This document shows, piece by piece, positions 8,791 to 44,111 of a stretch of 59,862 nt of DNA. Numbering within the stretch: the first letter of the stretch is position 1; the number at the start of each line of letters is the position of its first letter. The notes below the pieces were generated by a model. The model saw nothing but the letters and a program-made list of their open reading frames with translations. It did no database searches and was not told where the DNA came from. A program made the translations under genes and the position numbers. Source of the DNA: a virus (lineage: Duplodnaviria > Caudoviricetes); IMG/VR virus record IMGVR_UViG_3300028862_000314, positions 1 through 59,862 of that record, one strand, 5' to 3'.

Positions 8791-8833
8791 TTTGTGTTTA
8801 AATTTCAGATTGTTATCCGGTCAATAGGAATCA

Positions 8834-8877
8834 CAAAGTAACTTCGTTAATAAAAAATAAATATGTTTTTTTGTCAT
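8834..8877 (-). promoter_or_regulatory. putative late promoter (ATGACAAA box + TTACTTTG -7 element)
   Basis: Same 44-bp layout as 31936-31979 and 31986-32029. Confidence 0.6.
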
Positions 8878-8932
8878 GTATATGTGATAAACTGTCATTT
8901 TTGCCCTATATTTGCAGTAACGCTATTTTATT

Positions 8933-9268: not shown

Positions 9269-9271
9269 TCT

Positions 9272-29548: not shown

Positions 29549-29553
29549 GTCGT

Positions 29554-30786: not shown

Positions 30787-30797
30787 GCCGGTATGTA

Positions 30798-31313
30798 TTA
30801 ACGTGGTTTCTGGCTCGAAGCCTGCATTTCCTTTTGAATGTCTGCTTCTGTTTTGCCTGTGGTGTTCTCAGCTACCTGGAAAGTGTCAGCATAAGGATTA
30901 TATGTTGCATCTGCTTTCCCGTCTGCTTCTGCCCTGGTATAGCTTGGTATGTAGTAATTCCTTGTGTAACTGCCAATCCTTCCGTCAACAGGGCTTAATT
31001 CAGGTTTAGGGTAGTTCTTCTTTAATCCTGATGAATACATTGGATTCGGGGAGTTGTAAGTTGCGTTGAAATAGTCCTGCATCTTCTTAGTCTGCGAATC
31101 GTAATCGTAATTCTTCCCCTGTATCATGTGGTATTGCTCAAACTGATCTTTAGCATACTTCCCGTCACCTGCATCTAACTGTTCATCGGTAACTCCCTCG
31201 CTTCGTACTTTCTGATTAAAGTATTTCAGGTATGCGTTCCAATCGTCAACCTCTTGTTTTGTAGGGGCTGTGCGTTGTTCTGTCGGAGGAGTTGATACAG
31301 GTACTTCTTTCAT
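30798..31313 (-). CDS. hypothetical protein in ejection-protein cluster
   Basis: ORF coupled to neighbours. Confidence 0.55.
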   Translation of the reverse strand: MKEVPVSTPPTEQRTAPTKQEVDDWNAYLKYFNQKVRSEGVTDEQLDAGDGKYAKDQFEQYHMIQGKNYDYDSQTKKMQDYFNATYNSPNPMYSSGLKKNYPKPELSPVDGRIGSYTRNYYIPSYTRAEADGKADATYNPYADTFQVAENTTGKTEADIQKEMQASSQKPR

Positions 31314-31918
31314 TATACAGGCTTTTTGTCAAAGGCTCCGTTAGCCCATGAGTTGAGTATATTGCTTGTTGCTCCGTTTACATTTGCTCCAAACTGGTTC
31401 CATTGGTTTGCTTTTCCTGCAAGTATGTTAGCCTGGTTTGCTTCTAAAGGCTGCATCAGTCCTTTGTACTGGTACATTGTCTGGTCCTTGCGTATATCGC
31501 CAGCACCTACAAGGCCGGTAACTGCATCAGCGTAACTCTTTTGGTTCTGTCCTGATTGCGCTATTACTGCTTCTGGTGTGCTTCCACCGGCAACAGCCAT
31601 ATTAGCCTGTGACTTGTTTGCATCTTTGAATTGTGTCTGTAAACGTGAAAGTCCGGCACGTGCAGCATCAGAATCAAGGTAATTCCTGTAATACTCTTTA
31701 TTGAACCATGAACCTAGTTGATCCATGCGCTGCTTATTATAAGCCTCTGACTTCCTGGCTGCCTTTTCGGCTTGTGATTGTCCCCAAATATTAGCTGCTG
31801 CTCCTACTCCTGCGCCTATAACTGCGCCCCAAGGTCCGAATGTAGCCCCGGAAGCTGCGCCTGAACCAATTGAGCTTAACATCTCATTACCGTTTGCATC
31901 GAATCCTGGTGATGACAT
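31313..31918 (-). CDS. internal virion (ejection/pilot) protein
   Basis: GAASGATFGPWGAVIGAGVG Gly/Ala segment followed by coiled coil. Confidence 0.65.
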   Translation of the reverse strand: MSSPGFDANGNEMLSSIGSGAASGATFGPWGAVIGAGVGAAANIWGQSQAEKAARKSEAYNKQRMDQLGSWFNKEYYRNYLDSDAARAGLSRLQTQFKDANKSQANMAVAGGSTPEAVIAQSGQNQKSYADAVTGLVGAGDIRKDQTMYQYKGLMQPLEANQANILAGKANQWNQFGANVNGATSNILNSWANGAFDKKPV

Positions 31919-31935
31919 AATCCTAGTATTTTCTG

Positions 31936-32029
31936 CAAACTTATAACACCTTACTATTCCAAATGTGTTTATTTGTCATAAATTAATGACAAAAACACCA
32001 TGTTAGTACTGATAATCAGAATAGTTTTG
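31936..32029. promoter_or_regulatory. divergent putative late promoters
   Basis: Back-to-back ATGACAAA boxes, each 44 bp to the end of a TAnnTTTG element (TAAGTTTG minus, TAGTTTTG plus). Confidence 0.6.
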
Positions 32030-32048
32030 CAGGTTTAATAATTATGTT

Positions 32049-34886
32049 ATGGGTCAGATCGCAAACATATCACCGAAAGGAATCATAAGGAACACCCCGG
32101 ATTCGTCATGTGTAGATGGTTCTTTGTTGGAAGCTATCAATATCCGCTTTCGTGATGGGGCCTGGCGTGGTATCGGTGAGAAGAAAGCAACAGGATATTA
32201 TGCTGAATCTGTTTTTATTCTTGATGGCATAGCGTATCACCCGGCACTTCCTGTTAATACCTATGTGGTCCATAACTCGGCAGACAATAAGATTTATACC
32301 GTTCTTTTCACAAATGGTAGTGCTGTTCAGGTTTCAACTGCTGTTCTTACGCTGGAATCGGGAGAGGTATTCAGTAGGTTTTCGCATCTTGGGAATGTAT
32401 TATTTGTTTTCACGGACAGGAGAAAGTATTTATTGTATTGGGATGTTAAGACACTCGCTTATATCAATCTGACTAAACTACCACAACCTAACATGCAGGT
32501 TGTTTCAATTCCCACAACTGACGATTTAGATTATTTTATTGCGGAGTTTAACATACCGGAACCTGTTGGATTAGTCGAAACAGGCGTTGGATCAGTTGTT
32601 GAGGAATACATTAAGAACCAGGTAATGAGTTCATATTACTTGAAGATGGATTCATACAAAACTCTGAATTATATCACCGGAGTTTTCCTTTTGCGTATAG
32701 CTTACAAGCTATTCGATGGTACTTATATCAATCACAGTATTCCAATATCTGTTTCAATAAGCCCAACAACAGGAACATATTTTATACCCGTAATAGCATA
32801 TTGGACCGTAACTGGTGGCTATCATGCTACAATGAGGGGGATAGCCGTATCAAAAAATATATTCAAGTATGATTTCTTTAATGCTGTCGATTTTAATTTT
32901 AAAGATTATTACGATGCCGGTATTATTGAATCAATGGATATTTTTTGCACTGAACCATTCGTTACACGTGACTACAATCCTAATTCAATGGTTTGGGGTC
33001 ACACGACATTGCCGTCTGGAGCAATTGCCCTTACCCCTAATTTAAGGCCTGAGTTTAATACAATTATCGAAGATGCCGTATTCTATAAAATGCACTCTAT
33101 ACCGGTTTCTGATCTCGTTAAAACTACAAATAACGTAGGTAAATACGGAAGGATAGAGCTTGACTTCAGTAAGATTGTTTCAACTAACGAGTTAATGCCT
33201 GCTGATGATTTTTCACATCACGGAATTAATGCGCTGGCAGATTATCAATACAATAGCAGGATGCACCTGGGTAATGTTTCGATTCTTCCTACATTACCAT
33301 TAGACAACAGTGTTAACCCTCCGGTGATAGGAATAAAAGCTGACCTTTCCGGGTTAGAGTTACCCGTAGAAGGTACTGATAGCTCGCTGATTGTTTCTTA
33401 TGATCCATACACCGGGTTAGATATTCGCTGCCGTGTGTACATTAAAACAGCAAACGGAGTTGTTATTGTTGATGGACCTGTACCTAAGAACAGGCCGGAA
33501 ACAGAAGCAGATGGTGTTACCATAACAGGTATATTCACCCCGGCAAATTACTCTTATGCTTTCTTCACCGATTCAACCAATAACTATATAGCATTAAGGA
33601 ACCTTATTTCATATCCAGATTACCGGGCTTATAAAATGAGATTCTATTATACTTACCTCGGAATAAAGTATGTGTTGGCGGATTTTGATTTAAAACCTGC
33701 AACAAATATGAACATTGCTTACTTCGGTACTATCCCGGAATCAACTACTTCAAATGTCATTAACCTGACAATGCCACTTACTTTAACTGCTGGCACTGTT
33801 TATACTGATACGGATTGGAACATTACAAACATCATCCGCGACACAAACCGTATGCAGGTATCAGAAATATTCAATCCTTTTATCTGGCCTGCTAAGAACT
33901 CATATAGATTCGGATTGATACACAATGAACTCATAGACATTTCAACGGTACAATCGCAAATGAGTGATTCCGCTTTTGGTATGTACCCTATTTATGTTTT
34001 CACCAGGTCAGGAGTTTACGCTATCCAACACGGGACCGGGGAAGTACTATATCAAAGTATTCAGCCCTTGAATAATGAAATACTTATTTCTCGTGGCTCG
34101 TTGTGTGCTATCAGCGGAAGTATTGTGTTTGCCTGCAAAGAAGGAATAAGGGTTATAACAGGATCTAACAGGCCGGAGGAGATAAGTATTCCTGTTGAGG
34201 GTTCAATTAATAACCCATTAGCCCTACTGCCGTATTATTATGATGCTCTCACGGGGTTCAGGCTCCCACAAATCAATAATTACCGTACAGGAGTAACCTT
34301 TTTAACCTACATTCAGGCTGCTAAGATTTTTTACGATGTTGAGAACAAAGAAATAATTGTATCAAATCCGGCATATCTGTACTCATACGCATACTCTCTG
34401 TTCACTGAAAGCTGGGCCACAAGGACTGATGTATTCACCGATGTACTTGTTATCGCTGGCAGGCAGATAGCTGTTAAGCGTAGCTCTGCAATGGATGGCG
34501 ACACGTTGGTATATACTTCTTCCCTTCATTACCTAGACACGGAAGATACTACAACAGGCCTATGTGATTACATGCTGATGCAGACAAGGCCCCTCAATTT
34601 CTCAAACTCGGCAAATAAGCATATCAATAAGCTAATAAGCAGGTGTAGAGTTATCACAAAGAATCAGGAGAACGCTATACAAATAGTTGTTGGTAGTAAT
34701 GACTTGATTACTTGGCAGATAATATCATACGTTCAGTATAGCGGAGATCAAGCAAATATGATAAATACTAATCCGTCAGGCAATTTTAAATACTTTGTAA
34801 TAGCTATTGCCGGAGAAAGAAAAGGATTCTACCTTAACCAGATTGATATTGACTGGAAGGAAAGATTTAATGATAAACTACGATAA
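32049..34886 (+). CDS. tail nozzle/stabilization protein (tail tubular B / P22 gp10-like)
   Basis: 945 aa beta-rich; DG.L.E.IN, YNSRMHLGN, SE..NPF, FG.YPIYVF motifs. Confidence 0.7.
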   Translation: MGQIANISPKGIIRNTPDSSCVDGSLLEAINIRFRDGAWRGIGEKKATGYYAESVFILDGIAYHPALPVNTYVVHNSADNKIYTVLFTNGSAVQVSTAVLTLESGEVFSRFSHLGNVLFVFTDRRKYLLYWDVKTLAYINLTKLPQPNMQVVSIPTTDDLDYFIAEFNIPEPVGLVETGVGSVVEEYIKNQVMSSYYLKMDSYKTLNYITGVFLLRIAYKLFDGTYINHSIPISVSISPTTGTYFIPVIAYWTVTGGYHATMRGIAVSKNIFKYDFFNAVDFNFKDYYDAGIIESMDIFCTEPFVTRDYNPNSMVWGHTTLPSGAIALTPNLRPEFNTIIEDAVFYKMHSIPVSDLVKTTNNVGKYGRIELDFSKIVSTNELMPADDFSHHGINALADYQYNSRMHLGNVSILPTLPLDNSVNPPVIGIKADLSGLELPVEGTDSSLIVSYDPYTGLDIRCRVYIKTANGVVIVDGPVPKNRPETEADGVTITGIFTPANYSYAFFTDSTNNYIALRNLISYPDYRAYKMRFYYTYLGIKYVLADFDLKPATNMNIAYFGTIPESTTSNVINLTMPLTLTAGTVYTDTDWNITNIIRDTNRMQVSEIFNPFIWPAKNSYRFGLIHNELIDISTVQSQMSDSAFGMYPIYVFTRSGVYAIQHGTGEVLYQSIQPLNNEILISRGSLCAISGSIVFACKEGIRVITGSNRPEEISIPVEGSINNPLALLPYYYDALTGFRLPQINNYRTGVTFLTYIQAAKIFYDVENKEIIVSNPAYLYSYAYSLFTESWATRTDVFTDVLVIAGRQIAVKRSSAMDGDTLVYTSSLHYLDTEDTTTGLCDYMLMQTRPLNFSNSANKHINKLISRCRVITKNQENAIQIVVGSNDLITWQIISYVQYSGDQANMINTNPSGNFKYFVIAIAGERKGFYLNQIDIDWKERFNDKLR

Positions 34887-34901
34887 TAAACTAAAATAGT
34901 A

Positions 34902-35195
34902 ATGGCAGCACCACTTGGACATAAGAAAGCAGGAGGCAGACAGAAAGGCACGACAAATAAGTCTATTAGTGATTTGCGCTCTATATTCAGCACTCTGCTT
35001 ATCAATAATGAGGGTAATATGCAGACATGGATAGACAAACTAGCTCAACGTAATCCAGGCAAGGCACTAGAGATTATAACAAAAATGGCTGATTATCTTA
35101 TTCCTAAACCAATTCAGGAAGGTGAGAAGTCACCGGAACTTGATTGGTATGCTGAACAAGCCCGGAAGATGATGGAAAAGAGTAAGACTGGCTAA
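34902..35195 (+). CDS. terS: putative terminase small subunit
   Basis: GHKKAGGRQKGTTNK and Y.IPK motifs typical of small terminases. Confidence 0.65.
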   Translation: MAAPLGHKKAGGRQKGTTNKSISDLRSIFSTLLINNEGNMQTWIDKLAQRNPGKALEIITKMADYLIPKPIQEGEKSPELDWYAEQARKMMEKSKTG

Positions 35196-35481
35196 GGATA
35201 TTCAAATTCCCTGTTATGTATTCTTCAATAGCTAAATACTGATTATAAAAGTCACTATCAATATTACAATCCCTAAATTTGTTCATCGAATGATATACTC
35301 TCTGTATGTCGCATCCTAATATTTCAACTACTTGGTGATCGCTTAACTTTGTGGTCCGCTTCAACGCTATTATAATAATCTGATGGCAGCGCATAACTCG
35401 CCTGGCGCGACTACTCCTGAACTCTTTTGGAGTAACAGAATAAGTTTTACATACGAGTTCTATTATTTGCGCAGGTGTCAT
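35104..35481 (-). CDS. DnaA C-terminal-like HTH protein
   Basis: IIELVCKTYSVT...S.R.R and LS...V..ILG.D...VYHS. Confidence 0.55.
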   Translation of the reverse strand: MTPAQIIELVCKTYSVTPKEFRSSRARRVMRCHQIIIIALKRTTKLSDHQVVEILGCDIQRVYHSMNKFRDCNIDSDFYNQYLAIEEYITGNLNILSQSYSFPSSSGLVQHTNQVPVTSHLPELV

Positions 35482-36149
35482 ATATGAATCTGATTAATCG
35501 GTGATTGAATCCTGCTAATTAGTTTATCAGAAATATGAGTGTAGATAAGAGTAGTCTTTACGTTATTATGACCGGCAAGCTTCTGGATCAGATTAATGTC
35601 AGTACCGGCCTCTACCATGTGAGTGAATGCACAATGTCTGATTAAGTGTGTGTAAACTCTTTTACTTATTCCGGCCTTTTCTGCCAGTTGTTTCATAACT
35701 TCATTCACCGATCTATCTGAATACTGAATACCAAACTGTCCATTAAGGACATATTCCTTTGAATGATATTCTTTGTAGTACTTTTCGAGCAGTGGAATAA
35801 TGACATCAGGAAGCATCACTTGACGGTCTTTATTTCCTTTGCCCGCAACAATGTTTATAATCATTCTGGACCTGTCAATATGGGACCATTTAAGATTGAT
35901 TAATTCACTTACTCTTAATCCTGTTGAATAGAGAAGTGTTAGTATTACTTTATGCTTCGTATTTTCGCATACACTGAACATTCTTTGAATTTCATCCTGG
36001 GATAAAACTATTGGCAGTTTATTATTTTTCTTAGCGTAAGGAATCCACTTGAATTTATCTTTTTGATTCAGGCATATATCATAGAATTTCTTAATTGCAC
36101 TGTGATAACATTTTTGAGTGTTGGCAGCAATACAATAGCTACCTGACAA
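35478..36149 (-). CDS. tyrosine recombinase (integron-integrase-like), apparently 5'-truncated at the first cassette junction
   Basis: KLP.VLS, GLRVSE, GKGNKDR, HLIRH, GH, TLIYTH give an intact R-K-H-R-H-Y set; only a TTG start, located inside cassette 1. Confidence 0.85.
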   Translation of the reverse strand: MSGSYCIAANTQKCYHSAIKKFYDICLNQKDKFKWIPYAKKNNKLPIVLSQDEIQRMFSVCENTKHKVILTLLYSTGLRVSELINLKWSHIDRSRMIINIVAGKGNKDRQVMLPDVIIPLLEKYYKEYHSKEYVLNGQFGIQYSDRSVNEVMKQLAEKAGISKRVYTHLIRHCAFTHMVEAGTDINLIQKLAGHNNVKTTLIYTHISDKLISRIQSPINQIHI

Positions 36150-36564
36150 TTTTGTTTATAAGTTGAATTGGGGTACAGTTAAATTTTTCAGAAAGATTAA
36201 AAATTGTCATTGCTTGGTTTCTTGTTGCTGTCAAATCTAACTTCCATCTTATTTCTGCAAATATTCCGTTTTTACGCATTCCGGATAAAGTAAATTTTGA
36301 TACGTCCATTTGTCCGGGTACGCATTCTCTACACCAAAAATCATCTTGTTCATCTTCGGGTAGTTGATTATAGTATTGTTCTACTTTGTCAAAATCTAAA
36401 ATAGCAACATAGTTATCATCATCATCGTTCTCGAACCCACTTTTAAAAGGTTTCGAGTGTTTGCATCCTGAAAAGGCTTGTATTACCTTTTCACCACAAA
36501 TGAAAAATGTACTGCTGCCAACAACAGGTATATTCAATTGCGGGGTTTGTGGTAATTCGTTCAT
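36139..36564 (-). CDS. cassette 1 hypothetical protein (start inside attC loop)
   Basis: N-terminal LNIPVVGSST is encoded by the attC arm. Confidence 0.7.
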   Translation of the reverse strand: MNELPQTPQLNIPVVGSSTFFICGEKVIQAFSGCKHSKPFKSGFENDDDDNYVAILDFDKVEQYYNQLPEDEQDDFWCRECVPGQMDVSKFTLSGMRKNGIFAEIRWKLDLTATRNQAMTIFNLSEKFNCTPIQLINKIVR

Positions 36565-36646
36565 TTATTATCGTATTTAAGTTATTACTGTTTGATAATT
36601 TTGCGCTTCGTAGTCCGCAACTGAAATATACCCGCGGACGTTAGCC
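36516..36646 (+). repeat. attC-like site 1
   Basis: TGCCAAC..GGTATATTCAATTGCGG / CCGCAACTGAAATATACC..CGTTAGCC. Confidence 0.8.
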
Positions 36647-36733
36647 AATAAGTTGCGCTGTAATCGTGTCTTAAAAATCTAATCCAATTCAAGACGGTTT
36701 CGCAGCAATTCAATGAGCATTAGCGCAACCTAT

Positions 36734-37230
36734 TGCTAACAGAGTATATAAAAAATTAAATGGTTTGAGCAATCTGTGCGGGTTCGGCTGTCAAATCTTC
36801 GCCAGTTAAAGCATACCACAAGTTTTGCAATTGGTGTACAAAGTTTATTTCAGCAATCCACACTTCTGATTCTCCAAAATAAACCTGTCCTTCAACAGTA
36901 ATTACCAATTCACCTTTGTTATAGTATCCAGGGTGTCCGATCTCAAATCCAAGTTTCATTAACCAATATTCTGATATTGTCTTACCTTCTAATTCAGAAA
37001 ATGAAATAAGGTCAGTTTTTAATTTATCCTCAAATAAATATTCAACTCTTGCGAAATCGTATTTAATTTCAACAACGGTCAACAATGCCGGCTTGCCTAC
37101 TATCGGGTCCCATTTATACGATAAATAATTCCCAATTTTTAATTCACTTTTTTTCATGTTTTTACAATATTTAGGTAGAGTTAGTATTTTAGGTAACCAT
37201 TTAACTTTTCATATACTCCATACGTTATAA
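36734..37230 (+). repeat. attC-like site 2 (gene in loop)
   Basis: CTAAC.GAGTATATAAAAAATTAAATGGTT / AACCATTTAACTTTTCATATACTC..CGTTATA. Confidence 0.8.
36756..37157 (-). CDS. cassette 2 phage protein (ELKIGN...VHQLQNL family)
   Basis: Paralog of 12908-13264. Confidence 0.7.
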   Translation of the reverse strand: MKKSELKIGNYLSYKWDPIVGKPALLTVVEIKYDFARVEYLFEDKLKTDLISFSELEGKTISEYWLMKLGFEIGHPGYYNKGELVITVEGQVYFGESEVWIAEINFVHQLQNLWYALTGEDLTAEPAQIAQTI

Positions 37231-37512
37231 GCCATTTTTGCCACCGCACCCATACTTCATGCTTTTCGGTAAGCAATCCATCATTTCTTTATCCAACCAC
37301 AGCACTTTATCACAATTCTTACATTTCCAACCATAAGCAGTCCATTTACTGATTTGTGTTTTACCACTTAATGAATGCTTGTGCTGTGATTCTATCTCGT
37401 CAATGTATGGGTTTTCCATATCAAATTCGTGTTTTACCCCAAATAAAAAACGGCTTATAACAACAAGTATAGGTAATTTGCCGTTCTTCAATTTAACTTT
37501 TTCTATATTCAT
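37225..37512 (-). CDS. cassette 3 small Zn-binding protein (start in attC loop, TAA stop in crossover core)
   Basis: CKNC motif; LPILVVISR is encoded by the attC arm. Confidence 0.65.
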   Translation of the reverse strand: MNIEKVKLKNGKLPILVVISRFLFGVKHEFDMENPYIDEIESQHKHSLSGKTQISKWTAYGWKCKNCDKVLWLDKEMMDCLPKSMKYGCGGKNGL

Positions 37513-37583
37513 AATATTTATCTTTTAATTTAAGTTTCTACTAATTTTGATGGGCAAACTACCCATACTTGCAGCCGTTAGCA
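37455..37583 (+). repeat. attC-like site 3
   Basis: ATAAC..AAGTATAGGTAATTTGCC / GGCAAACTACCCATACTT..CGTTAGC. Confidence 0.8.
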
Positions 37584-37613
37584 GCTATTAAAACAGTACG
37601 CTCGTTCCTCGCC

Positions 37614-38150
37614 TGCTAACATGGCATAAGAACAAGTGCTGGCGGTGCTTCGATTTAGCATTTCAACTAATTTTACCATAATTATTTTTTTGCCAACGCT
37701 AAAACTTCTTTATTGTATTTTTTCTGATAACCTTGAAATATATGTGGAAAATTTTTTCCAGTACATACCATATAAATTGCAGTCTGTGAAACATTATATC
37801 TTAAAGCAAGTTCCTTTTTGGATGTTCCATTTTTTAAAACTTCAATAATTATTCTTATTGCTTTAAAATCATTTAATTTTCTGTGTGGATTTCTGAATGA
37901 CCGAACATTCATTCCTTTTGGAGTTTTTGATTTGCATATTCTTTGTATGTGATTAAAATTAACTGGATATAATTCTGCAATTTCTTTTGAAGATTTATTT
38001 TCCACAAACCATAAATTTTGTATTTCCAGTTTTTGTTTTTCTGTAAGTTTTATATTACTCATATTTCCCCTCCTTAAAAAAATAATTATTACTGTAGTGT
38101 TTCAATCATACTGTACGTTTGCACCTGTTCCTATGCCGATACCGTTAGCA
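37614..38150 (+). repeat. attC-like site 4 (gene in loop)
   Basis: CTAAC..GGCATAAGAACAAGTGC / GCACCTGTTCCTATGCC..CGTTAGC. Confidence 0.8.
37682..38062 (-). CDS. cassette 4 tandem-HTH DNA-binding protein
   Basis: SSKEIAELYPV and SKKELALRYNVSQTAI motifs. Confidence 0.7.
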   Translation of the reverse strand: MSNIKLTEKQKLEIQNLWFVENKSSKEIAELYPVNFNHIQRICKSKTPKGMNVRSFRNPHRKLNDFKAIRIIIEVLKNGTSKKELALRYNVSQTAIYMVCTGKNFPHIFQGYQKKYNKEVLALAKK

Positions 38151-38234
38151 ACTATATGCGCATAACAGCAACTATAAAAACGATTCCAACACTTAACACT
38201 TTCGCAGCAAGTCCGGGCAGATAGCGCATACAGT

Positions 38235-39038
38235 TGCTAACACAGTATATAACAAACGCGAACGGCACAGCAACTATTAAAGGGTAATCGTTTATCATCA
38301 CAAATAATAACATGGTTGTACAAGTGGTTTTTACCATAATTCAGGCTGTAATTTATAATTTTGAAATCTTTTCTCTTGTGCGTCGTAATAATCTTTGTCA
38401 TTCTCAAATCCTACAAAATCAATGTTGCCAGTTCTGTATGCTGCAATTCTGTTTGATCCTGATCCTAAATGCGTATCAATTACTTTTCCGCCTTCAGGTA
38501 AATAGTTTCTGTAAATCCAACTGTAAAGCTGAACCGGCTTTTGTGTTGGATGTATTTTGTTTTTCTCGAGCAGTACGGAATATCTAAATATCTTATTTGA
38601 TCCATCAAATGAAGTCCAAGCGTAATCAAACATTCCAAAGCTAAGTTTTTCGGGTTGTCGCTTATCCCAGATAATACAATGTTTTGTTGCTGGAAGTGGA
38701 TAATAGTTGCCACCCCAAATAATCTGATTTTTGGAAATTCTGAAAAGTTCATCAAAGTATTCCATTGATATTGGCTTATTATCCCATTTCTTTGCGGTCA
38801 ACCCTTTGTCTGTTACTAATCGAGGGCTATTACCTATACCAATTCCAAATTCAGGATCAACCACAGCCAAATCAAAACAGTTGTCGGGATAGTTACGCAT
38901 GTTCACAAGGCAATCATCGAAAAAAACTATATTATTCATGTTGGTTCAATATTTAGGTAAAGTGAGCGTTATTATTTGTTTACTTTTCGTTTGCAATCAG
39001 GCAGTGGGTTGCGCTTGTCATATACTAATACGTTATGG
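38235..39038 (+). repeat. attC-like site 5 (gene in loop)
   Basis: CTAAC..AGTATATAACAAACGC / GCGCTTGTCATATACT..CGTTATG. Confidence 0.8.
38331..38939 (-). CDS. cassette 5 DNA amino-methyltransferase (N4/N6, beta class)
   Basis: DPEF motif IV variant, HPTQKP, IDTHLGSGS. Confidence 0.85.
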   Translation of the reverse strand: MNNIVFFDDCLVNMRNYPDNCFDLAVVDPEFGIGIGNSPRLVTDKGLTAKKWDNKPISMEYFDELFRISKNQIIWGGNYYPLPATKHCIIWDKRQPEKLSFGMFDYAWTSFDGSNKIFRYSVLLEKNKIHPTQKPVQLYSWIYRNYLPEGGKVIDTHLGSGSNRIAAYRTGNIDFVGFENDKDYYDAQEKRFQNYKLQPELW

Positions 39039-39087
39039 GCAACCGTAAGACCGCTCCGAAAGGCAGCCTTACGACGCCACAATTTCA

Positions 39088-39225
39088 CTACTTTAGTTTT
39101 GCAACCAATTCAAGTAGTTTTTCTACTACGGTCGTAACCGCTTCTTTTTTCTCTGCCCTCATTAATGGGTCAATGCTTGCCGATAAAGTGGCAATTGCGT
39201 TTAATAAATCCTGTTGATTTTCCAT
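39088..39225 (-). CDS. cassette 6 small helical protein
   Basis: MENQQDLL...; ORF can be extended to 39285. Confidence 0.5.
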   Translation of the reverse strand: MENQQDLLNAIATLSASIDPLMRAEKKEAVTTVVEKLLELVAKLK

Positions 39226-39281
39226 ATAAATTGTGGGTTTTACAATGCCCTCCCAAGGCGTATTATTTAAAAAACGGCAGC

Positions 39282-39377
39282 CCATAACACGTTGTATACG
39301 TCAGTTTTGCCGTGTAATTTCGTATAAATTGATAGCTGTGTGCAGGCAAAACCGCACGCATACAACCACCGTTAGCC
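39282..39377 (+). repeat. attC-like site 6
   Basis: CATAAC..GTTGTATACGTCAGTTTTGCC / GGCAAAACCGCACGCATACAAC..CGTTAGC. Confidence 0.8.
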
Positions 39378-39464
39378 AATAAGCTACGCATACAGCGTGT
39401 AATAAAACGTTAATCTTAATTTTCAATCTTCGCATCGGTTCAGAAAGTTTGGTGCGTAGCCTAT

Positions 39465-39891
39465 TGCTAACAGCGTATATAACAAAATAAATTATTTGGG
39501 CTGTACGTGTGGCTCGGTAGGCGCATTCATCGCTTCATAATCAATGTACACATCATACAGTTGTTCTGTTGTACGCCAAACATTTATGTCGTAAAAAGAC
39601 CAATAAGATTTAACCCAAACCTTTTGATTTGCATCTGTTGGATGTTGTCTGCATATCCAATTATACTTAGTAGTCCATTCAACAAAATCAATTGCCATTA
39701 TTTTTGAATAGTTAGACATGGCATCAAGTACTTCTGGAACATCAAATGTTATTTTAACACCTGGTCTCCTTCTTTCTCTTGCCTGTTTAAGTATTTCTAA
39801 TCTTGTTATGCTTTCCATAATTGTACAATATTTAGGTAAAGTGTGTAATTGAGGTAATAATTTCTCTTGTCATATACGCCATCCGTTAGTT
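39465..39891 (+). repeat. attC-like site 7 (gene in loop)
   Basis: CTAAC.GCGTATATAACAAAATAAATTATT / AATAATTTCTCTTGTCATATACGC..CGTTAGT. Confidence 0.8.
39492..39818 (-). CDS. cassette 7 hypothetical phage protein
   Basis: AIDFVEW...TTEQLY motif; same leader as the cassette 2 and 5 genes. Confidence 0.65.
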   Translation of the reverse strand: MESITRLEILKQARERRRPGVKITFDVPEVLDAMSNYSKIMAIDFVEWTTKYNWICRQHPTDANQKVWVKSYWSFYDINVWRTTEQLYDVYIDYEAMNAPTEPHVQPK

Positions 39892-40080
39892 GCAATTACA
39901 GAAAAACTCAACAACTGCTGAAATAATAACTACATATACAGAAACATACAATAAAGTATATAAGATATAAAGTGATTGGTCTCCGTTGTAGGTTTTATAA
40001 TGAAAATCAGCCGTTTTAATAGATAACCAAATTGTTAACCCGAAAGTCACAAAAAATCCTAATAATATTAAAGTATTCAT
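39886..40080 (-). CDS. cassette 8 two-TM membrane protein (TAA stop in crossover core)
   Basis: Two hydrophobic segments; ATG at 40080. Confidence 0.6.
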   Translation of the reverse strand: MNTLILLGFFVTFGLTIWLSIKTADFHYKTYNGDQSLYILYTLLYVSVYVVIISAVVEFFCNCN

Positions 40081-40098
40081 AATTAATTTAATAACTGC

Positions 40099-40227
40099 AA
40101 CTAACACTAAATATAAAATATACGGGTGTCAGTGCATATTTGAACGGTATTACCTTTAATTTGCTTTCGTGTATCGGGATAGGATACCGCTTTTAATCCC
40201 GTACATTTCATATTTTTAACGTTGGCA
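40099..40227 (+). repeat. attC-like site 8
   Basis: CTAAC..AAATATAAAATATACGGG / CCCGTACATTTCATATTT..CGTTGGC. Confidence 0.8.
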
Positions 40228-40233
40228 GCAATA

Positions 40234-41028
40234 CTACCAAAGTGCCAGTTTCAAGTTTCGTTTATAATTGAACCATCTTTTTTCTTCGTCCTGAAAATAT
40301 TCCGAATCAATTTCAGTGCCGACAAATTCGCATTCAAATTTATCTGCAGTAATTCGGCTACTTCCTGAGCCTAAATGTGTATCAATTACTTTCATTTTGT
40401 ATATGCCAAATTCTTTAAAAATAGCATCGTAGAGCATCACTGGCTTATGGCAAGGGTGTATTCTTTTTTCATTTAGTTTTTTGTTTCCTTGCTGTACCAT
40501 TGGTTCACTAAGGCTTTTCGCTTGCATCATTCCAGCCCATAAAAGCGGTATTTCAATTTCGTAATTAATAGAGCTGCAGTAAGCATATTCAAATTGGTTA
40601 AAACTTACACCTTCCGCAAATCCTTTATTCCATTTAATTCGTCCTTTGCCTAATCCTGTCCATTCGGTATAGTCAGCTCCGAAAATTATTTGGTTTTTGC
40701 TTATTCGTTTTAGTTCATCAAAATATGCTTGAGGTGGTGTGGCATTATCCCAATCCTTAAAAGTATGTTTATGTTTATTTCTGTTTGGGTTTATTCGAGT
40801 TCCATTTTTTTGTTTTACAGTCGTTTTGGTTTCTTTCAAATAAGCCATTTTAGCAACTCCAATCCCATAAGGTATGTCACAAACCGCCCAATCGAAATAT
40901 TTATTAGGAAACAAACCCATAACAGACGAATAATGAGCATTAAACACCGTACTGCTGCCAACAACAGGTATAGCAAATAAAGGCTGCTGTGGTTTGCGGT
41001 CGGTAGTGCTTTCTATATTATTCATCAT
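40234..41028 (-). CDS. cassette 9 DNA amino-methyltransferase (N4/N6, beta class; start inside attC loop)
   Basis: DIPY motif IV variant, HPCHKP, IDTHLGSGS; FAIPVVGSST from attC arm. Confidence 0.85.
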   Translation of the reverse strand: MMNNIESTTDRKPQQPLFAIPVVGSSTVFNAHYSSVMGLFPNKYFDWAVCDIPYGIGVAKMAYLKETKTTVKQKNGTRINPNRNKHKHTFKDWDNATPPQAYFDELKRISKNQIIFGADYTEWTGLGKGRIKWNKGFAEGVSFNQFEYAYCSSINYEIEIPLLWAGMMQAKSLSEPMVQQGNKKLNEKRIHPCHKPVMLYDAIFKEFGIYKMKVIDTHLGSGSSRITADKFECEFVGTEIDSEYFQDEEKRWFNYKRNLKLALW

Positions 41029-41085
41029 CGGTTGATAGTTTACTGGTTTCTAATCCTTTACTTGCCATACCTGCGACCGTTAAGT
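40956..41085 (+). repeat. attC-like site 9
   Basis: GCCAAC..CAGGTATAGCAAATAAAGG / CCTTTACTTGCCATACCTG..CGTTAAG. Confidence 0.8.
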
Positions 41086-41106
41086 GCAATACCTACGCAC
41101 GAAACA

Positions 41107-41592
41107 CTATTTAATTTTAATTCCTAATCCTATTCCACTATAAACAGCAAGCCCTATACCTCCTACAATCAACCCTCCGTCTATTGTAGCGTTAAATATT
41201 CCTACGCTAATCATAGTGTAACCTATTCCGGCCTCTGCCTGAAACTTCTTTGCTATATCCCAACTATCATCACTGCAGTGGTGTTCAAGTTTGGCCTGTC
41301 CTATTCCTGCATTGATCGTTACACGGTTAAATGATCGTGATGCACCTACAACAAATGATTGGTTTGTGTCGAAGCAATCCTCCGTATTTTTACCTTCCTG
41401 CCAGCTTACGGCAGCATAAGAGGCTATATATCCTCCCCATGTCGGAGAAGTATAAAATAACTTACCGCTTGCCTGCCCGTCTGAGTTATAGTGAATAGCT
41501 GCGCCTATCACTTGTGAGTTAGCCTTTATTGGGATCTGCGCCAATAAGAATATCATAATTGCAATAGCTGATAATTTTAATGCTGTTTTCAT
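41107..41592 (-). CDS. secreted, putative small outer-membrane beta-barrel protein
   Basis: Signal-peptide-like N-terminus; alternating Gly/aromatic strands; C-terminal GIGLGIKIK. Confidence 0.55.
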   Translation of the reverse strand: MKTALKLSAIAIMIFLLAQIPIKANSQVIGAAIHYNSDGQASGKLFYTSPTWGGYIASYAAVSWQEGKNTEDCFDTNQSFVVGASRSFNRVTINAGIGQAKLEHHCSDDSWDIAKKFQAEAGIGYTMISVGIFNATIDGGLIVGGIGLAVYSGIGLGIKIK

Positions 41593-41990
41593 AGCTTTGA
41601 GTATTTGATTATTACTTGAATAAGATTGAATCTGTCATGTTTATATGCTTTTTTGTAACTTGCCTGGGCAAAAAAATCTAACTGATCTACTCTTTCGTTT
41701 CCAATTTTTTTAACCAGATTCTTCCGATACTCTAACAGGTTCCCGTGTTTATGGTAGTTACATTGTAGGCACTGTCTATGTACATTGTCCTCGTTGAACT
41801 CCATTGAAGCATAATGTCCTGCCGAATAAAAGTGTCCGGCTTGTGGGTCATTACGTGTTCCGCAACTTATACAGCCCTGTTCTTCATCCCTTTTTCTTAT
41901 CCATGCCCTAAATAGTTTACCGGCCTTGGTTCGTAGTTGTGGAACTGAGTATTTTTTGTAATGCTGTATTTGAGTTGCTGTGAGTTCCAT
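41589..41990 (-). CDS. ninG: NinG/Rap-like recombination endonuclease
   Basis: IRKRD..CISCG..AGHF..FNEDNVH.QC..CN..KHGNLLEYR. Confidence 0.85.
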   Translation of the reverse strand: MELTATQIQHYKKYSVPQLRTKAGKLFRAWIRKRDEEQGCISCGTRNDPQAGHFYSAGHYASMEFNEDNVHRQCLQCNYHKHGNLLEYRKNLVKKIGNERVDQLDFFAQASYKKAYKHDRFNLIQVIIKYSKL

Positions 41991-42039
41991 TACAGTTGTA
42001 AGTGTTAAATATTAAATTCAAATTGCTTTTCTTTTGCTG

Positions 42040-42306
42040 TTAAAAATCATAATCCCTAGAGAGTAGTATTGATTCTGCCGTAATTGGATCACAATTATTT
42101 TCTTTGGTGATGGAATCTATCATGTAATCGTGCCACAACTCATAAGGGGTTAGTTTTATTTCACTATGATTAACCACCCATATACTGAACTTTTTAGATT
42201 CTTTGTTTGAATAAATCTGCATAGCATCCAGTATATTTGATAAACTTTCATCGGGGATGCTCTTAATCTCTATTGCTTCACTGAGTATTTCTAATGCTTC
42301 TGTCAT
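42040..42306 (-). CDS. hypothetical protein
   Basis: ORF in early/middle operon. Confidence 0.55.
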   Translation of the reverse strand: MTEALEILSEAIEIKSIPDESLSNILDAMQIYSNKESKKFSIWVVNHSEIKLTPYELWHDYMIDSITKENNCDPITAESILLSRDYDF

Positions 42307-42309
42307 GTG

Positions 42310-42531
42310 TTAAATTATTGATTCAATTTTCTTTATCGCGCTATAAACTCCGCTTGTTGTTGTGTTAAATAATTCAGCTATTCTGCTTGAAACTAAATAT
42401 GATTGTTTGTTGAGAGCGAAATAACAAGCGTGTCTACACATAAAGTTTTTTTTAAAGTCCTTTGGTTTAATCCCGTAGTAGCTACAAATCTTTTCTATAA
42501 CTACATGAGGTGGTGTATCGTGGGTGTTCAT
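42310..42531 (-). CDS. DnaA C-terminal-like HTH protein
   Basis: IEKICSYYGI...RH..Y...S.RIAELFN....VYSAIKKI. Confidence 0.55.
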   Translation of the reverse strand: MNTHDTPPHVVIEKICSYYGIKPKDFKKNFMCRHACYFALNKQSYLVSSRIAELFNTTTSGVYSAIKKIESII

Positions 42532-43166
42532 TCATCTGTTTTGATATTCATTAATTCTTCATCAACAAGCCATTCTTTATTAACTAGCCAATCAGATCCC
42601 ACTTTTTTCATTATCTCCTTCCCTGATGTTTCTCCACAAGTTCTCTGATCTCCGTATAATTTTGCCAGTTCGTGTTTTTGATTCTCATGCTCTCTATCGG
42701 AAACAAATTCAGCAGCATTTAACCGTTCATCAAATACCTGCCTGAACCATGATAATATTTTTGCTCCATCTAATCCCTCGTATATGGCCCCAAACTTTCC
42801 CATTTTAGCCTGTTTGAATATGTAAATCATATCGGCTATCTTAATCATTGGAAATTCATCCAGTATCATTTCTGCGGTAATATCAATTTGTGCGCCCGTC
42901 ATGCTTCGGGTTAAATTCAGGTAGTCAGACAATTCAAGTAAATGCGCTTTTATTAAACTGACTGCCAATAGTTCATTTACTTTGTTTTTCAAATAACCCA
43001 GTGACGGAGTATTGTATTCTGGCTTTATTAAATCCGAAACCGATTTTAATTTAACCTGCAGTTCCCTGCTCGATTGCGGATTGTATATCTCTAGCAAGTT
43101 TTTGACGGTAATCGTCGCTAACTCTGTTATTTGATTTGACCCTGTTTTTATTAGTGCCGTTGACAT
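42528..43166 (-). CDS. replication accessory protein (helicase-loader-like position)
   Basis: Follows initiator; F..AK.GKFG..Y..LD motif. Confidence 0.5.
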   Translation of the reverse strand: MSTALIKTGSNQITELATITVKNLLEIYNPQSSRELQVKLKSVSDLIKPEYNTPSLGYLKNKVNELLAVSLIKAHLLELSDYLNLTRSMTGAQIDITAEMILDEFPMIKIADMIYIFKQAKMGKFGAIYEGLDGAKILSWFRQVFDERLNAAEFVSDREHENQKHELAKLYGDQRTCGETSGKEIMKKVGSDWLVNKEWLVDEELMNIKTDE

Positions 43167-43986
43167 GATCTTTAAGTTTTAATTTGAACCAGTTACCAAA
43201 ATATTTTTTTGCCTCCTTATCTGTTAAGGGAAAACTTGATAAGTCTTTTAAGTGTCTTGTAAATGCCGGGATATGTTTTGTTACGTCCTCGGTTGATATT
43301 GTTAATTTGTAGGTATCAAAAGCTGTTGTTACAAGTGATTCGTGCTGAGAATAATTATTTTCTAATTCGTGTTCGAGTTCAGATATTTTTTCTTCCGTAT
43401 AAACAATCCCATGTTTACCGAATAATGATTCAAATTTTTCCGGCCCCGGGAAATCTTCTTCTTTTTTTTCTTTGTTTTTTAAATCACTAATAAATTTTTC
43501 AAATTCAGATTCATATTTGTTTAATAGTGTATAGTTATTAGTTAATAGTATTATATTATTACCAGTTAGAGTACCAGTTAGAGTACCAGGTAGTGTATCA
43601 GGTAGTGTATCAGGTACAGTACCATGTATAGTATCAGATAGAGGCACAGCTACAGTACCAGTTAGAGTATCATTTTTTGATACACTAAGAATTGTTAATT
43701 TTATCCTTGGTGACTTATTTAGGTTGATTCCCTTCTCCCATTGCAGTAAACCAAATTTGCATAATTCATCAAGTATTGCGTAATAAGTTGTTTTACTTTG
43801 AATAGCTGCGCCCTGCATTGCAAGGTCCCAGGGACACTTAAACCATACAGCCCAGTTATTCCTATTGTTTTGATTTAAAAGGAACATATACAGGCTTATG
43901 TGTGTTGGCCTAATGTCATGTACTCCATTGAAAACAATAGAATAGAATGCTTTTAACTGAGTATGTAGTTCAATCCTGTTAGCCAT
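43051..43986 (-). CDS. replication initiator protein
   Basis: N-terminal wHTH-like HISLY.FL..NN..W; internal tandem repeats; C-terminal YF.NW. Confidence 0.7.
   Translation of the reverse strand: MANRIELHTQLKAFYSIVFNGVHDIRPTHISLYMFLLNQNNRNNWAVWFKCPWDLAMQGAAIQSKTTYYAILDELCKFGLLQWEKGINLNKSPRIKLTILSVSKNDTLTGTVAVPLSDTIHGTVPDTLPDTLPGTLTGTLTGNNIILLTNNYTLLNKYESEFEKFISDLKNKEKKEEDFPGPEKFESLFGKHGIVYTEEKISELEHELENNYSQHESLVTTAFDTYKLTISTEDVTKHIPAFTRHLKDLSSFPLTDKEAKKYFGNWFKLKLKDHVNGTNKNRVKSNNRVSDDYRQKLARDIQSAIEQGTAG
43561..43672. repeat. 12-bp tandem repeats (iteron-like origin) in initiator gene
   Basis: ACCAGTTAGAGT x2, CAGGTAGTGTAT x2 and degenerate copies, beside an AT-rich tract (43500-43560). Confidence 0.7.
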
Positions 43987-43988
43987 TT

Positions 43989-44111
43989 CTATGTTTCAAT
44001 TATAATAAACCCCAATAGCAAAACCCGACCCGAACGGTGTCCAGTCGCAGAGGGTACGGGTAATGCTAATAAGGGTAAGTGAAAGTTATTTTTCATTTTT
44101 TGGACACCGTT
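43989..44111 (-). promoter_or_regulatory. structured 5' leader (pseudoknot + 35-aa uORF) of the initiator gene
   Basis: 11-bp perfect complement 44033-44043/44101-44111; hairpin 44010-44075; uORF 44096-43989. Confidence 0.55.

Follow-up and report, generated by a model that had tools for sequence, protein, structure and literature searches.

A probable integron-like array of nine gene cassettes beside a Xer-type recombinase gene in a Bacteroidota phage

Integrons are regarded as a bacterial invention, bound to one specialised integrase (IntI). The IntI-specific domain is thought necessary for hairpin recognition, and attC sites are known to carry extrahelical bases. In phages, stem-loop elements known as PeSLs were reportedly described by Arbiol et al. 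in 2010 as 'mobile regulatory cassettes' of T4-type genomes. These consist of promoter plus stem-loop repeats that flank small accessory genes in a hyperplastic region and are exchanged via homology between the repeats; to our knowledge, they have no dedicated recombinase, AAC crossover or own-end complementarity. The pdif modules of Acinetobacter plasmids and the CTX-type phages make use of host XerC/D and dif-like 28-bp sites, with CTX-type phages being integrated as folded single strands by XerCD, and we know of no attI-plus-array platform or cassette-specific stems in either. The only published phage counterparts we found are 'CALINs', including that of Polaribacter phage P12002L, which are presented without a linked phage recombinase in the available part of the source (PMC9892861). 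Qi et al. (2023) used this term for the P12002L sites, one of which was recombined into attI1 by IntI1 in E. coli; the term 'Xer' does not occur in the available text of that paper, nor does it mention a phage Xer-type recombinase or attI (PMC9892861).

Here we analyse a window of 59,862 nucleotides from a Caudoviricetes virus (IMGVR_UViG_3300028862_000314, positions 1 to 59,862; coordinates are those of the whole window). A first-pass annotation had read part of it as an integron-like, gene-shuffling platform, which it did not recognise as a described phage system. The latter statement requires amendment: such sites are in print as the P12002L CALIN, while the link to a phage recombinase is unmade in the accessible part of that report (PMC9892861). 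We consider it likely that nine mobile gene cassettes of a Bacteroidota phage form an integron-like array at 36121-41079, and that a small Xer-type recombinase is the corresponding enzyme.

The array and recombinase gene of the window

The first-pass annotation placed nine units between 36121 and 41079, each with an AAC...GTT fold-back. All ten G|TT boundaries were located accordingly (Table 1), and two cassette-specific stems surround the invariant AAC/GTT in 9/9 units. The head of each unit was also said to pair with the AAC end of the same unit rather than the previous one. The first part holds throughout: an exact reverse-complement partner of the head (GTT plus the next bases), ending in AAC, is found inside its own unit in all nine, and units 2 and 7, which have a 6-nt exact match, form long imperfect stems of 19 bp. 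The second part holds for seven of the nine units, for which the previous unit contains no partner of at least 6 nt; the remaining two have previous-unit partners of 7 and 6 nt. A further stem, 17-24 bp long, is formed between the bases right after the inner AAC and those right before the terminal CG. Strict thresholds (X stem <= -14 and L stem <= -22 kcal/mol, RNA duplexfold) were passed by all nine units with these boundaries, compared with 9 of 500 random AAC starts elsewhere in the window. Beyond the distal end no further cassette was found, with no downstream partner, a halt of the chain walker and no covariance model match. The recombinase gene had been assigned to the opposite strand, which is correct relative to the G|TT-reading strand of the sites; however, the nine cassette genes are co-directional with it, all being on the minus strand. 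The products comprise two DNA methyltransferases, a helix-turn-helix protein, small membrane proteins and unknown proteins, a cargo in keeping with accessory and anti-restriction functions.

Table 1 Positions and contents of the array features. Partner, exact own-unit partner of the cassette head; match, covariance model hit with E-value.
Feature	Position	Strand	Length (bp)	Gene or content	Stems	Partner (nt)	Match
Xer-type tyrosine recombinase, truncated	35478-36149	-		223-codon open frame; PF00589 1.2e-39			
Junction 0	36118-36140	-		X'-AA end of cassette 1 fused to AAC inside recombinase gene			
Cassette 1	36121-36640	-	520	ORF 36139-36564, 141 aa, no family; segment B, gene start inside hairpin loop	L 36614-36636 with 36524-36544; X 36120-36134 with bases ending 36522	10	36511-36652, 9.5e-08
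Cassette 2	36641-37224	-	584	ORF 36756-37157, 133 aa, phrog_10066 (function unknown); segment A (loop)	L arms 37194-37219 and 36742-36766 enclose ORF; X, 100-nt hairpin 36640-36740	6	
Cassette 3	37225-37577	-	353	ORF 37225-37512, 95 aa; segment B; stop codon TAA part of terminal TAAC	L 37548-37573 with 37463-37487	10	37450-37589, 9.3e-10
Cassette 4	37578-38144	-	567	ORF 37682-38062, 126 aa, helix-turn-helix; segment A (loop)	L arms 38120-38138 and 37622-37640; short X hairpin 37577-37620	8	
Cassette 5	38145-39032	-	888	ORF 38331-38939, 202 aa, N6/N4 DNA methyltransferase (PF01555 4.9e-09; phrog_23224 2e-31); segment A (loop)	L arms 39000-39028 and 38243-38272; X hairpin 38144-38241	10	
Cassette 6	39033-39371	-	339	ORF 39088-39285, 65 aa; segment B; ATG within GTT-ATG box	83-nt hairpin; L arms 39342-39367 and 39290-39315	9	
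Cassette 7	39372-39885	-	514	ORF 39492-39818, 108 aa, no family; segment A (loop)	L arms 39855-39880 and 39473-39497; X hairpin 39371-39471	6	
Cassette 8	39886-40221	-	336	ORF 39886-40107, 73 aa, hydrophobic by eye; segment B	L arms 40188-40216 and 40108-40136	10	40094-40233, 2.8e-05
Cassette 9	40222-41079	-	858	ORF 40234-41028, 264 aa, N6/N4 DNA methyltransferase (PF01555 1.3e-07; phrog_23224 1.4e-37); segment B	L arms 41054-41075 and 40964-40984; X box identical to that of cassette 1	10	40951-41091, 1.3e-07
Array distal end	41069-41092	-		Backbone ending TTAA|C adjoins cassette 9			

An earlier hint that the recombinase is incomplete proved correct. Only 35478-36120 derives from a recombinase gene, the first 9 codons of the open frame (36121-36149, TTG start) being contributed by cassette 1, and approximately 62 N-terminal residues are gone when compared with full-length relatives of 275-285 aa; tblastn did not find the missing N-terminus elsewhere in the window. 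Homology ends at an AA|C in the codons for E-P-N|T-Q, exactly where cassette 1 abuts, and the breakpoint has no flanking homology. The bases following this AAC resemble the attI box of related loci (a pseudo-attI), and the true attI is lost from the window. Recombination in this phage has probably joined cassette 1 to an attI-like AAC within the recombinase gene, deleting ~62 codons, in which case the window would offer a rare snapshot of a platform that inactivated its recombinase gene by acting on a look-alike site. The phage carries the truncated gene in several peat runs. Because of this truncation, the array probably represents a frozen record, barring provision of the enzyme in trans. 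Among the contigs of four runs, no circles or rearrangement joints of the window phage were found, and a 1851-nt contig of run X4 tracks cassette 8 to 40223 before diverging into unlike sequence. The window also encodes a separate 407-aa integrase with SAM-like and arm-binding domains.

The annotated lack of the IntI-specific insertion was confirmed by alignment, with 24 residues present where IntI4 (2a3v) has 67. The IntI models scored 174 bits in two stretches (TIGR02249, cut-off 265) and 103 bits (NF011946, cut-off 435), which together with the missing insertion rules out IntI identity. The best NCBIfam match of the window recombinase is XerA (178.7 bits, cut-off 220), and the nearest solved structure is XerA 5hxy (8.7e-33). 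For the full-length recombinase of a related locus (L004), scores were 208.7 for XerA (cut-off 220), 174 for XerD (329.6) and 163.5 for XerC (335); membership of the XerA, XerC or XerD equivalogs was therefore rejected, all scores being below the curated cut-offs. With scores under every cut-off, the enzyme belongs to the Xer/IntI superfamily without falling into any curated family.

Pairing, covariation and strand bias of the sites

Read on the gene strand, a cassette can be modelled as C-G, 4-7 nt, L', segment A, L'', 2-5 nt, GTT-X, segment B and X'-AA, whereby L' would pair with L'', X with X' of the same cassette, and strand exchange would occur at AA|C. Given these pairings, a circularised cassette would carry a continuous two-box hairpin with an asymmetric internal loop, similar to attC. 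The sites themselves have an attC-like form, with two stems, the invariant AAC/GTT and an asymmetric spacer; an Rfam search of the sites gave no match.

A covariance model, proposed by the first-pass annotation as a check, was built and revealed 53 sites with strong covariation. A search of both strands of 459 kb gave 53 matches, all of them on the gene strand and upstream of the recombinase. Four fall within the window (cassettes 1, 3, 8 and 9), none outside the array, and the same search found nothing in the Freya or P12002L loci. Paired cells in the model alignment amount to 89.8% (59.1% in shuffles), the covariation score is 0.688 compared with 0.158 for shuffles (0/500 reach 0.688; slid controls at most 0.109) and 17 of 18 L-stem pairs show double changes; the structure emerged only from the 10-seed and model-fitted alignments, the latter leaning towards the model. 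RNAalifold predicted no pairs on a plain MAFFT alignment of 26 sites. One G.U (G.T) wobble is near-invariant, occurring in 52 of 53 sites.

Own-end pairing was quantified for 43 strict cassettes. For the X stem the score is -19.9 with the own end and -6.7 with the abutting neighbour, the own end pairs better in 43/43, and the median perfect run is 10 nt versus 4 nt, statistics that are partly circular because these cassettes were chosen by sense-strand pairing. At lax thresholds the chain walker was unspecific, with 336 of 600 random starts yielding at least one "cassette".

All L stems and all X stems of the window (9/9 each) are stabler on the gene strand, and DNA parameters agree for the five short sites (5/5). 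The same asymmetry is seen in the cultured phage Freya (8/8 and 8/8), where G.T pairs number 33 versus 5. Whole-site folds calculated with DNA parameters clearly beat shuffles for three of the five short sites, the others having z of -0.22 and -0.30. The folded substrate may be the gene-sense strand in single-stranded form, marked by the conserved G.T wobbles. Since gene sense and folded strand coincide, selection at the RNA level could instead account for the G.T(U) bias.

Recombinase-linked arrays in related phages

Of 22 related viral loci, 18 have a full-length Xer-type recombinase gene next to a conserved attI-like site with a hypervariable cassette array ahead of it. The site has the consensus YTAA|C, 3-4 nt, TATATGT; its AA|C is located 50-54 nt (~52) before the recombinase ATG in 20/22 loci, and ATATGT is found at +5/+6 in 17/22 (background 44/6806). 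At least one strict cassette abuts attI in 18/22 loci (35 strict cassettes altogether), and among the relatives, including those at 90% identity, homology sets in only 4-13 nt ahead of the AA|C of attI. This arrangement suggests that new cassettes would be inserted at the conserved attI-like site as duplex, while excision, presumably via circular intermediates, could take place between any two sites. The candidate catalyst, linked to the sites by association only, is the small tyrosine recombinase of the Xer family whose gene lies directly downstream.

Ten cultured Polaribacter Freya isolates, part of a set of marine phages tied to the window by architecture and ~31% recombinase identity only, allow the comparison of cassette content that had been suggested for related phages. 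The isolates differ by whole cassettes only, cut at AA|C, and all ten genome lengths are sums of whole cassettes. Freya_1 corresponds to Freya_10 without six cassettes that total 4942 bp, the junctions lying at AA|C; cassette f (307 bp) is missing from Freya_9 and cassette c (902 bp) from Freya_8, and Freya_6 has an additional cassette g (472 bp) adjoining attI. Leef_1 and Ingeline_1 each contain one cassette beside a Xer-like integrase. Together, the recombinase-attI-array linkage in the relatives and these whole-cassette differences support the original integron-like, gene-shuffling reading. Further support comes from the run X4 contig that diverges after cassette 8 and from the P12002L site, alike in build, that IntI1 recombined into attI1 (PMC9892861).

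The sites might alternatively be bacterial integron debris (CALIN), with a host IntI moving the cassettes and the adjoining phage recombinase unrelated, the interpretation given to such phage sites in print (available part of PMC9892861). It draws on the IntI1-mediated recombination of the P12002L site, on P12002L itself, whose methyltransferase genes are separated by two-stem AAC/GTT sites of this kind and whose array has no annotated recombinase, and on an AAC/GTT core and own-end rule that are common to attC. However, recombinase, fixed attI-like site and array are linked not only in the 18 loci but also in Freya, Leef and Ingeline, and every model match lies upstream of the recombinase. 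In addition, the folded strand carries the genes, whose leader and start codon fall within the site, in contrast to bacterial cassettes; an IntI match over the cut-off was found in 0/2 MAGs holding relatives (these may be incomplete); and the window recombinase gene itself is cut at an attI-like AAC. We thus regard this reading as improbable. Taken with the truncation in the window, the P12002L case suggests that arrays persist without the enzyme, which weighs against the preferred reading.

We give similarly little credence to the hairpins being regulatory modules, moron-like and comparable to PeSLs, with the differences arising from homologous or illegitimate recombination between repeats and no site-specific enzyme. 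Such a function would account for loops with conserved A/T-rich leader motifs and often a start codon, for a conserved upstream leader common to three loop genes, and for hairpins on the mRNA strand with G.U-type wobbles. Hairpins alone are also what otherwise unrelated cassettes have in common, as in cassette 6, where only the hairpin is 84% identical to a related locus (L007 6461-6548). By contrast, the Freya junctions fall within the 3-nt AAC although longer identical runs sit a few bases upstream, the recombinase was truncated without flanking homology, the attI position beside the recombinase gene is fixed, and complementarity between X and the far end of the own cassette has no regulatory rationale. 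Finally, an ordinary Xer-type dimer-resolution or lysogeny enzyme that lies by a hypervariable region through coincidence is scarcely credible: the best family and structure matches are indeed Xer proteins, and the genome authors of Freya, Leef and Ingeline took the integrase as a temperate-lifestyle marker (available part of PMC8776804), but the window holds a separate integrase, the phage persists in several peat runs despite the truncated gene, and both the attI-ATG spacing and the arrays are conserved across most of the loci.

Implications and comparison with known systems

Extending the preferred integron-like reading, we consider the chances evenly balanced that Bacteroidota phages run their own integron analogue, in which a short Xer-type enzyme devoid of the IntI domain acts on folded ssDNA sites with the strand picked via fixed G.T wobbles instead of flipped-out bases. 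Integron-type recombination would then have arisen twice in the Xer family or predate IntI, and phages would share an exchange network for accessory (anti-restriction) genes. In such an analogue, each cassette itself would supply the leader, start codon and stop codon, and the gene could even be located inside the hairpin loop. If true, folded-site cassette capture is not bound to the IntI domain, and the swapping of small accessory genes such as DNA methyltransferases among Bacteroidota phages would be explained. Both the published phage 'CALINs' and the 'integrases' read as signs of lysogeny in cultured flavobacterial phages would require reinterpretation. The question is directly testable, since the hosts of Freya, Leef and Ingeline are cultured and natural isolates differ by single cassettes.

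By analogy with P12002L, with which the window shares methyltransferase cargo, the CALIN label might be applied here. The available part of the paper treats such sites as integrase-less integron parts (PMC9892861), whereas the sites described here belong to a recombinase-linked system, which is the better description of the window.

PeSLs resemble the array in combining small accessory genes in a hyperplastic phage region with stem-loop repeats alongside. Xer-dependent modules have a Xer-family recombinase in common with it and, in the case of CTX, a folded single-strand substrate.

The likeness to integrons, especially sedentary chromosomal ones, extends to an array of single-gene cassettes by a gene for a tyrosine recombinase, 5' of which lies an attI-type site, to imperfect two-box hairpin sites with an asymmetric spacer and invariant AAC/GTT, and to an apparent crossover at AA|C (G|TT on the other strand). 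One strand folds better, the cassette head complements its own far end and, in Freya, insertion takes place beside attI and loss anywhere. The site polarity, 5'-AA|C...GTT-3', we take to be that of the attC bottom strand. The integron arrangement of promoterless cassettes, a common Pc and attC 3' of the gene was not found; relative to site polarity the phage genes are on the other strand, and the site precedes or encloses the gene start. Unlike integrons, the system is phage-borne with a recombinase that lacks the IntI-specific insertion, and its cassette genes lie on the folded strand, co-directional with the recombinase gene. Phage sites place the extra spacer bases on the cleaved arm and have conserved G.T wobbles instead of extrahelical bases, while leader and start codon are located inside the site and whole genes may occupy the hairpin loop.

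Anatomy, folding and covariation of the cassette sites

The ten G|TT boundaries named in the first-pass annotation are all present and delimit nine units of 336-888 bp (window 36121-41079). All genes between 35478 and 41592 lie on the minus strand, where the crossover reads AA|C. The claim that each head is complementary to the AAC end of its own unit held for 9/9 units (exact reverse complements of 6-10 nt), and in 7/9 the head has no partner of at least 6 nt in the preceding unit. A second stem of 17-24 bp was found, in which bases 3-5 nt past the inner AAC pair with bases that precede the terminal CG by 5-7 nt. As a consequence of these offsets the CG-side arm always carries 2-4 extra spacer bases (read by eye). 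Using the annotated boundaries, all 9/9 units form an X stem (head GTT-X with its own far end X'-AA) of -14.1 kcal/mol or lower and an L stem (L' with L'') of -23.8 kcal/mol or lower; of 500 AAC starts drawn at random from either strand of the rest of the window, 9 reached X ≤ -14 together with L ≤ -22. The nine-unit pattern is real and lies far past chance.

On the minus strand, each cassette reads C-G, spacer, L', segment A, L'', spacer, GTT-X, segment B, X'-AA. Cassettes 1, 3, 6, 8 and 9 carry the gene in segment B, with segment A a loop of ~50-85 nt containing an A/T-rich leader and often a start codon. Cassettes 2, 4, 5 and 7 hold the entire gene within segment A, segment B being a bare hairpin of 43-100 nt. 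The sites also contribute to coding: the GTT-ATG box supplies the start of the cassette 6 ORF (window 39283-39285), the ORFs of cassettes 3 and 8 end on the TAA of the terminal TAA|C (37225-37227 and 39886-39888), and GTTATG heads are frequent among related sites. The L''-GTT-X sequences of cassettes 1 and 9 (36510-36535 and 40948-40975) are almost identical, so that the two proteins start with an unrelated, site-encoded N-terminal peptide containing IPVVGSST. A leader, TTTACCTAAATATTG, is conserved upstream of the loop genes of cassettes 2, 5 and 7, 6-10 nt before the ATG, and may represent a cassette-borne promoter or translation leader. An inversion of the shufflon or inverton type between inverted half-sites was rejected on account of the constant long/short spacer order of all nine cassettes and the single gene orientation.

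Features of the cassette array and its surroundings (window coordinates)
Feature	Position	Strand	Remarks
Cargo, cassettes 5 and 9			Two N6/N4 DNA methyltransferases
Cargo, cassette 4			Helix-turn-helix protein
Cargo, cassette 2			phrog_10066 protein, function unknown
Cargo, remaining cassettes			Five small proteins without family
Shared leader of three loop genes	37158-37224, 38940-39032, 39819-39885	-	
125-aa protein	35104-35481	-	Overlaps recombinase stop codon by 4 nt; DnaA C-terminal-like helix-turn-helix (PF08299, 1.4e-06, below cut-off)
161-aa protein	41107-41592	-	Directly past distal array end; signal-peptide-like start; weak porin match (PF13609, 0.0018)
407-aa integrase and overlapping 206-aa GIY-YIG protein	52563-54393		Phage_int_SAM_5 plus weak Arm-DNA-bind_5 match

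Mismatches in the window's stems are without exception G.T when read on the minus strand and A.C when read on the plus; the gene strand accordingly gives the more stable pairing for all nine L stems and all nine X stems. With DNA parameters, 5/5 short sites had the lower energy on the minus strand, their whole-site z-scores against shuffles being only -0.22, -4.30, -2.38, -2.89 and -0.30. Over 43 strict cassettes, themselves selected via the sense strand, G.T pairs numbered 152 on the gene strand versus 34 on the other. The same bias (8/8 and 8/8; G.T 33 versus 5) was seen for cassettes of the cultured Polaribacter phage Freya, the borders of which are mostly fixed by genome comparison (one by one for c, f and g, in blocks for a-b and d-e). 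The 5'-AA|C ... GTT-3' polarity corresponds to the bottom strand of an integron attC site. Since the folded strand is also the mRNA strand, the G.T wobbles may instead have an RNA-level reason.

A covariance model of the sites, as proposed in the first-pass annotation, was seeded with 10 short-loop sites (24 pairs). Searching both strands of 459,330 bases, it retrieved 53 sites, all on the gene strand and all upstream of the recombinase. Four are in the window (the sites of cassettes 1, 3, 8 and 9), with none outside the array, and one each occurs in two Bacteroidota MAG contigs (Ginsengibacter and Pedobacter) holding relatives; the Freya loci and that of Polaribacter phage P12002L gave no hit. 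In the model-fitted alignment, which leans towards its own model, 89.8% of cells were paired versus 59.1% in shuffles, and the covariation score was 0.688 versus 0.158, a value reached by 0/500 shuffles (maximum of slid controls 0.109). In this alignment 17/18 L-stem pairs show changes on both sides, and one G.U pair occurs in 52/53 sites. The X-stem consensus has 10 Watson-Crick pairs and, at position 11, a second G.T. The unfitted 10-seed alignment pointed in the same direction, with double changes in 16/24 pairs and a score of 0.461 versus 0.172. A MAFFT alignment of 26 sites, in which the stems did not line up, gave no predicted pairs with RNAalifold for that reason, whereas the 10-seed alignment worked; Rfam returned only four sub-threshold chance hits. 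The first ungapped site scanners were noisy (for example 44 window candidates versus 38 on the reverse strand), and at lax thresholds a duplex walker yielded a 'cassette' from 336/600 random starts. Owing to this lack of specificity the lax-walker cassette count was set aside and strict counts alone were kept.

A truncated Xer-type recombinase and its attI-like site

The 223-codon frame at 35478-36149 matches PF00589 (1.2e-39), and the window recombinase was used to fetch 24 related viral loci (59-85% identity). In these relatives the open frame comprises 276-330 codons, the protein being ~275-285 aa from the ATG (23 loci with the frame traced), and their N-terminal core-binding part is missing from the window copy. 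Compared with relatives L002-L006, homology stops exactly at an AA|C in the codons for E-P-N|T-Q, and it is at this break that the X'-AA end of cassette 1 adjoins the recombinase. The bases past this internal AAC resemble the attI box, and tblastn did not find the missing 5' part elsewhere in the window. The recombinase of the window phage is therefore cut off at a look-alike pseudo-site, a truncation that would most simply have arisen by the system's own reaction.

By sequence, the recombinase can be placed as a family within the Xer/IntI superfamily. The full-length protein of relative L004 scores under all curated cut-offs, with 208.7 versus 220 for XerA, 174 versus 329.6 for XerD, and 174 in two stretches for IntI (TIGR02249, cut-off 265). 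The closest solved protein is XerA (5hxy, 8.7e-33). The annotated lack of the IntI-specific insertion is borne out by a two-piece alignment, with 24 residues where IntI4 (2a3v) has 67; the insertion in the integron subgroup has been described as essential for integron function (Smyshlyaev et al. 2021, PMC8138268). The IntI model gave no match above its cut-off in the two MAGs holding relatives, a weak negative as these MAGs may be incomplete.

Among the 22 loci with upstream DNA, 20 have an AA|C located 50-54 nt before the recombinase ATG, with the preceding bases pairing to an upstream GTT box. ATATGT follows at +5/+6 in 17/22 loci, against a background of 44/6806 AAC. At least one strict cassette abuts this attI-like site in 18/22 loci (35 cassettes in all); of the other four, two are ended by the contig end and two have a site that is probably mis-called. 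DNA homology among relatives starts just 4-13 nt upstream of the attI-like AA|C, even for recombinase regions that are 90% identical (relatives L011 versus L015), and no DNA is shared further upstream. All-against-all blastp of 270 array ORFs revealed almost no shared cargo besides methyltransferases, and the same cassette at different positions could therefore not be demonstrated in the window's own family. The longest array of the loci fetched is that of L017 (IMG/VR, 68 kb; 251-9758), in which 12 model hits are spread across 251-7752, or 7.5 kb of the 9.8 kb preceding the recombinase. The window array is a member of a family of Bacteroidota phage systems that centre on a small Xer-type recombinase, distinct from IntI, together with a fixed attI-like site.

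Cassette variation in metagenomes and cultured phages

The window, an IMG/VR virus record of 59,862 bases (CheckV completeness 69%), contains typical phage genes plus a separate 407-aa integrase, which with its GIY-YIG overlap is probably a lysogeny module distinct from the cassette recombinase. The 161-aa protein past the array may be either a moron or a cassette in decay. One ORF of 4100 codons (17246-29548, minus strand) is unusually long for a phage of ~60-87 kb. Megablast of window 32000-44000 against GenBank phages gave no match, and the 945-aa neighbouring protein has no relatives among the viral contigs searched, leaving no close backbone relative of the window phage for comparison.

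The window stretch is present in 15 runs, mainly peat metagenomes. Logan contigs of four runs (X4, X6, X7 and X8) yielded no joints. Among the 64 piece ends listed (32 of 138 pieces), 7 fell within 5 nt of a site, with ~1.4 expected; given this limited listing, and since assemblies tend to break at inverted repeats, the excess is at best a hint. The loose ends at 39285 and at 40101/40102 indicate only that similar hairpins occur in other cassettes. A 1851-nt contig of X4 tracks cassettes 7-8 to 40223 and continues with ~1.1 kb of unlike sequence starting after G|TT, which suggests that in a relative another cassette comes next.

Cassette order could be compared in cultured phages. A full-length recombinase used as tblastn query matched 45 phage records in GenBank, none of which reached 60% identity; they include Polaribacter phages Freya_1-10 (~31%) and Leef_1 (36%) and Cellulophaga phages Ingeline_1-8 (31%). 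The ten isolates of Freya have practically the same sequence, but their genomes range from 43,978 to 48,920 bp, and the difference is located just upstream of the 'integrase'. Freya_1 is without the six cassettes a-f of Freya_10 (382, 460, 902, 1727, 1164 and 307 bp, adding up to 4942). The junctions ...ACAA|CGGATATGG and ...GCTAA|CACCCC in Freya_10, and ...ACAA|CACCCC in Freya_1, place the exchange within AAC. Freya_9 lacks exactly f, Freya_8 lacks c, Freya_2 stops after b, c adjoins attI in Freya_5, and an additional 472-bp cassette g adjoins attI in Freya_6. All ten genome lengths equal that of Freya_1 plus sums of whole cassettes, the content of Freya_3, 4 and 7 being checked by length only. 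The isolates thus differ by whole cassettes at AA|C, and the pattern matches the insertion at attI and loss anywhere expected of an integron. Leef_1 and Ingeline_1 have one cassette each, and in them AA|C precedes the ATG by 55 and 47 nt. The authors describing these phages take the gene to indicate lysogeny; the word 'cassette' has 0 hits in the accessible part of their paper (PMC8776804).

Relation to described systems

The integron-like reading of the first-pass annotation is upheld by anatomy, covariation, strand bias, linkage to the recombinase and cassette-wise isolate variation at AA|C: the nine units form a genuine integron-like array of cassettes whose folded sites resemble attC. The Xer-type recombinase would catalyse cassette exchange, presumably on single-stranded DNA and with cassette circles as putative intermediates.

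The statement that this is not a described phage system stands in part. The literature searched, supplements aside, yielded no account of a cassette platform built on a Xer-type enzyme in phages, but sites of this kind are in print as a CALIN. Applying integron tools to 10,705 phage genomes, Qi et al. (2023, PMC9892861) reported 17 CALINs, one of them in P12002L with methyltransferase genes. IntI1 recombined one P12002L site into attI1; the accessible portion of that paper makes no mention of Xer or a phage enzyme. We found that the P12002L sites (29238-32700 of the phage locus, L032), lying between three methyltransferase genes, have the same two-stem AAC/GTT build as those of the window. The 48.7-kb P12002L record has no annotated recombinase; this array has outlived its enzyme. 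The defining test of an integron is an IntI integrase, which the window system does not have, and its gene orientation also differs; for these two reasons we set it beside integrons and not among them.
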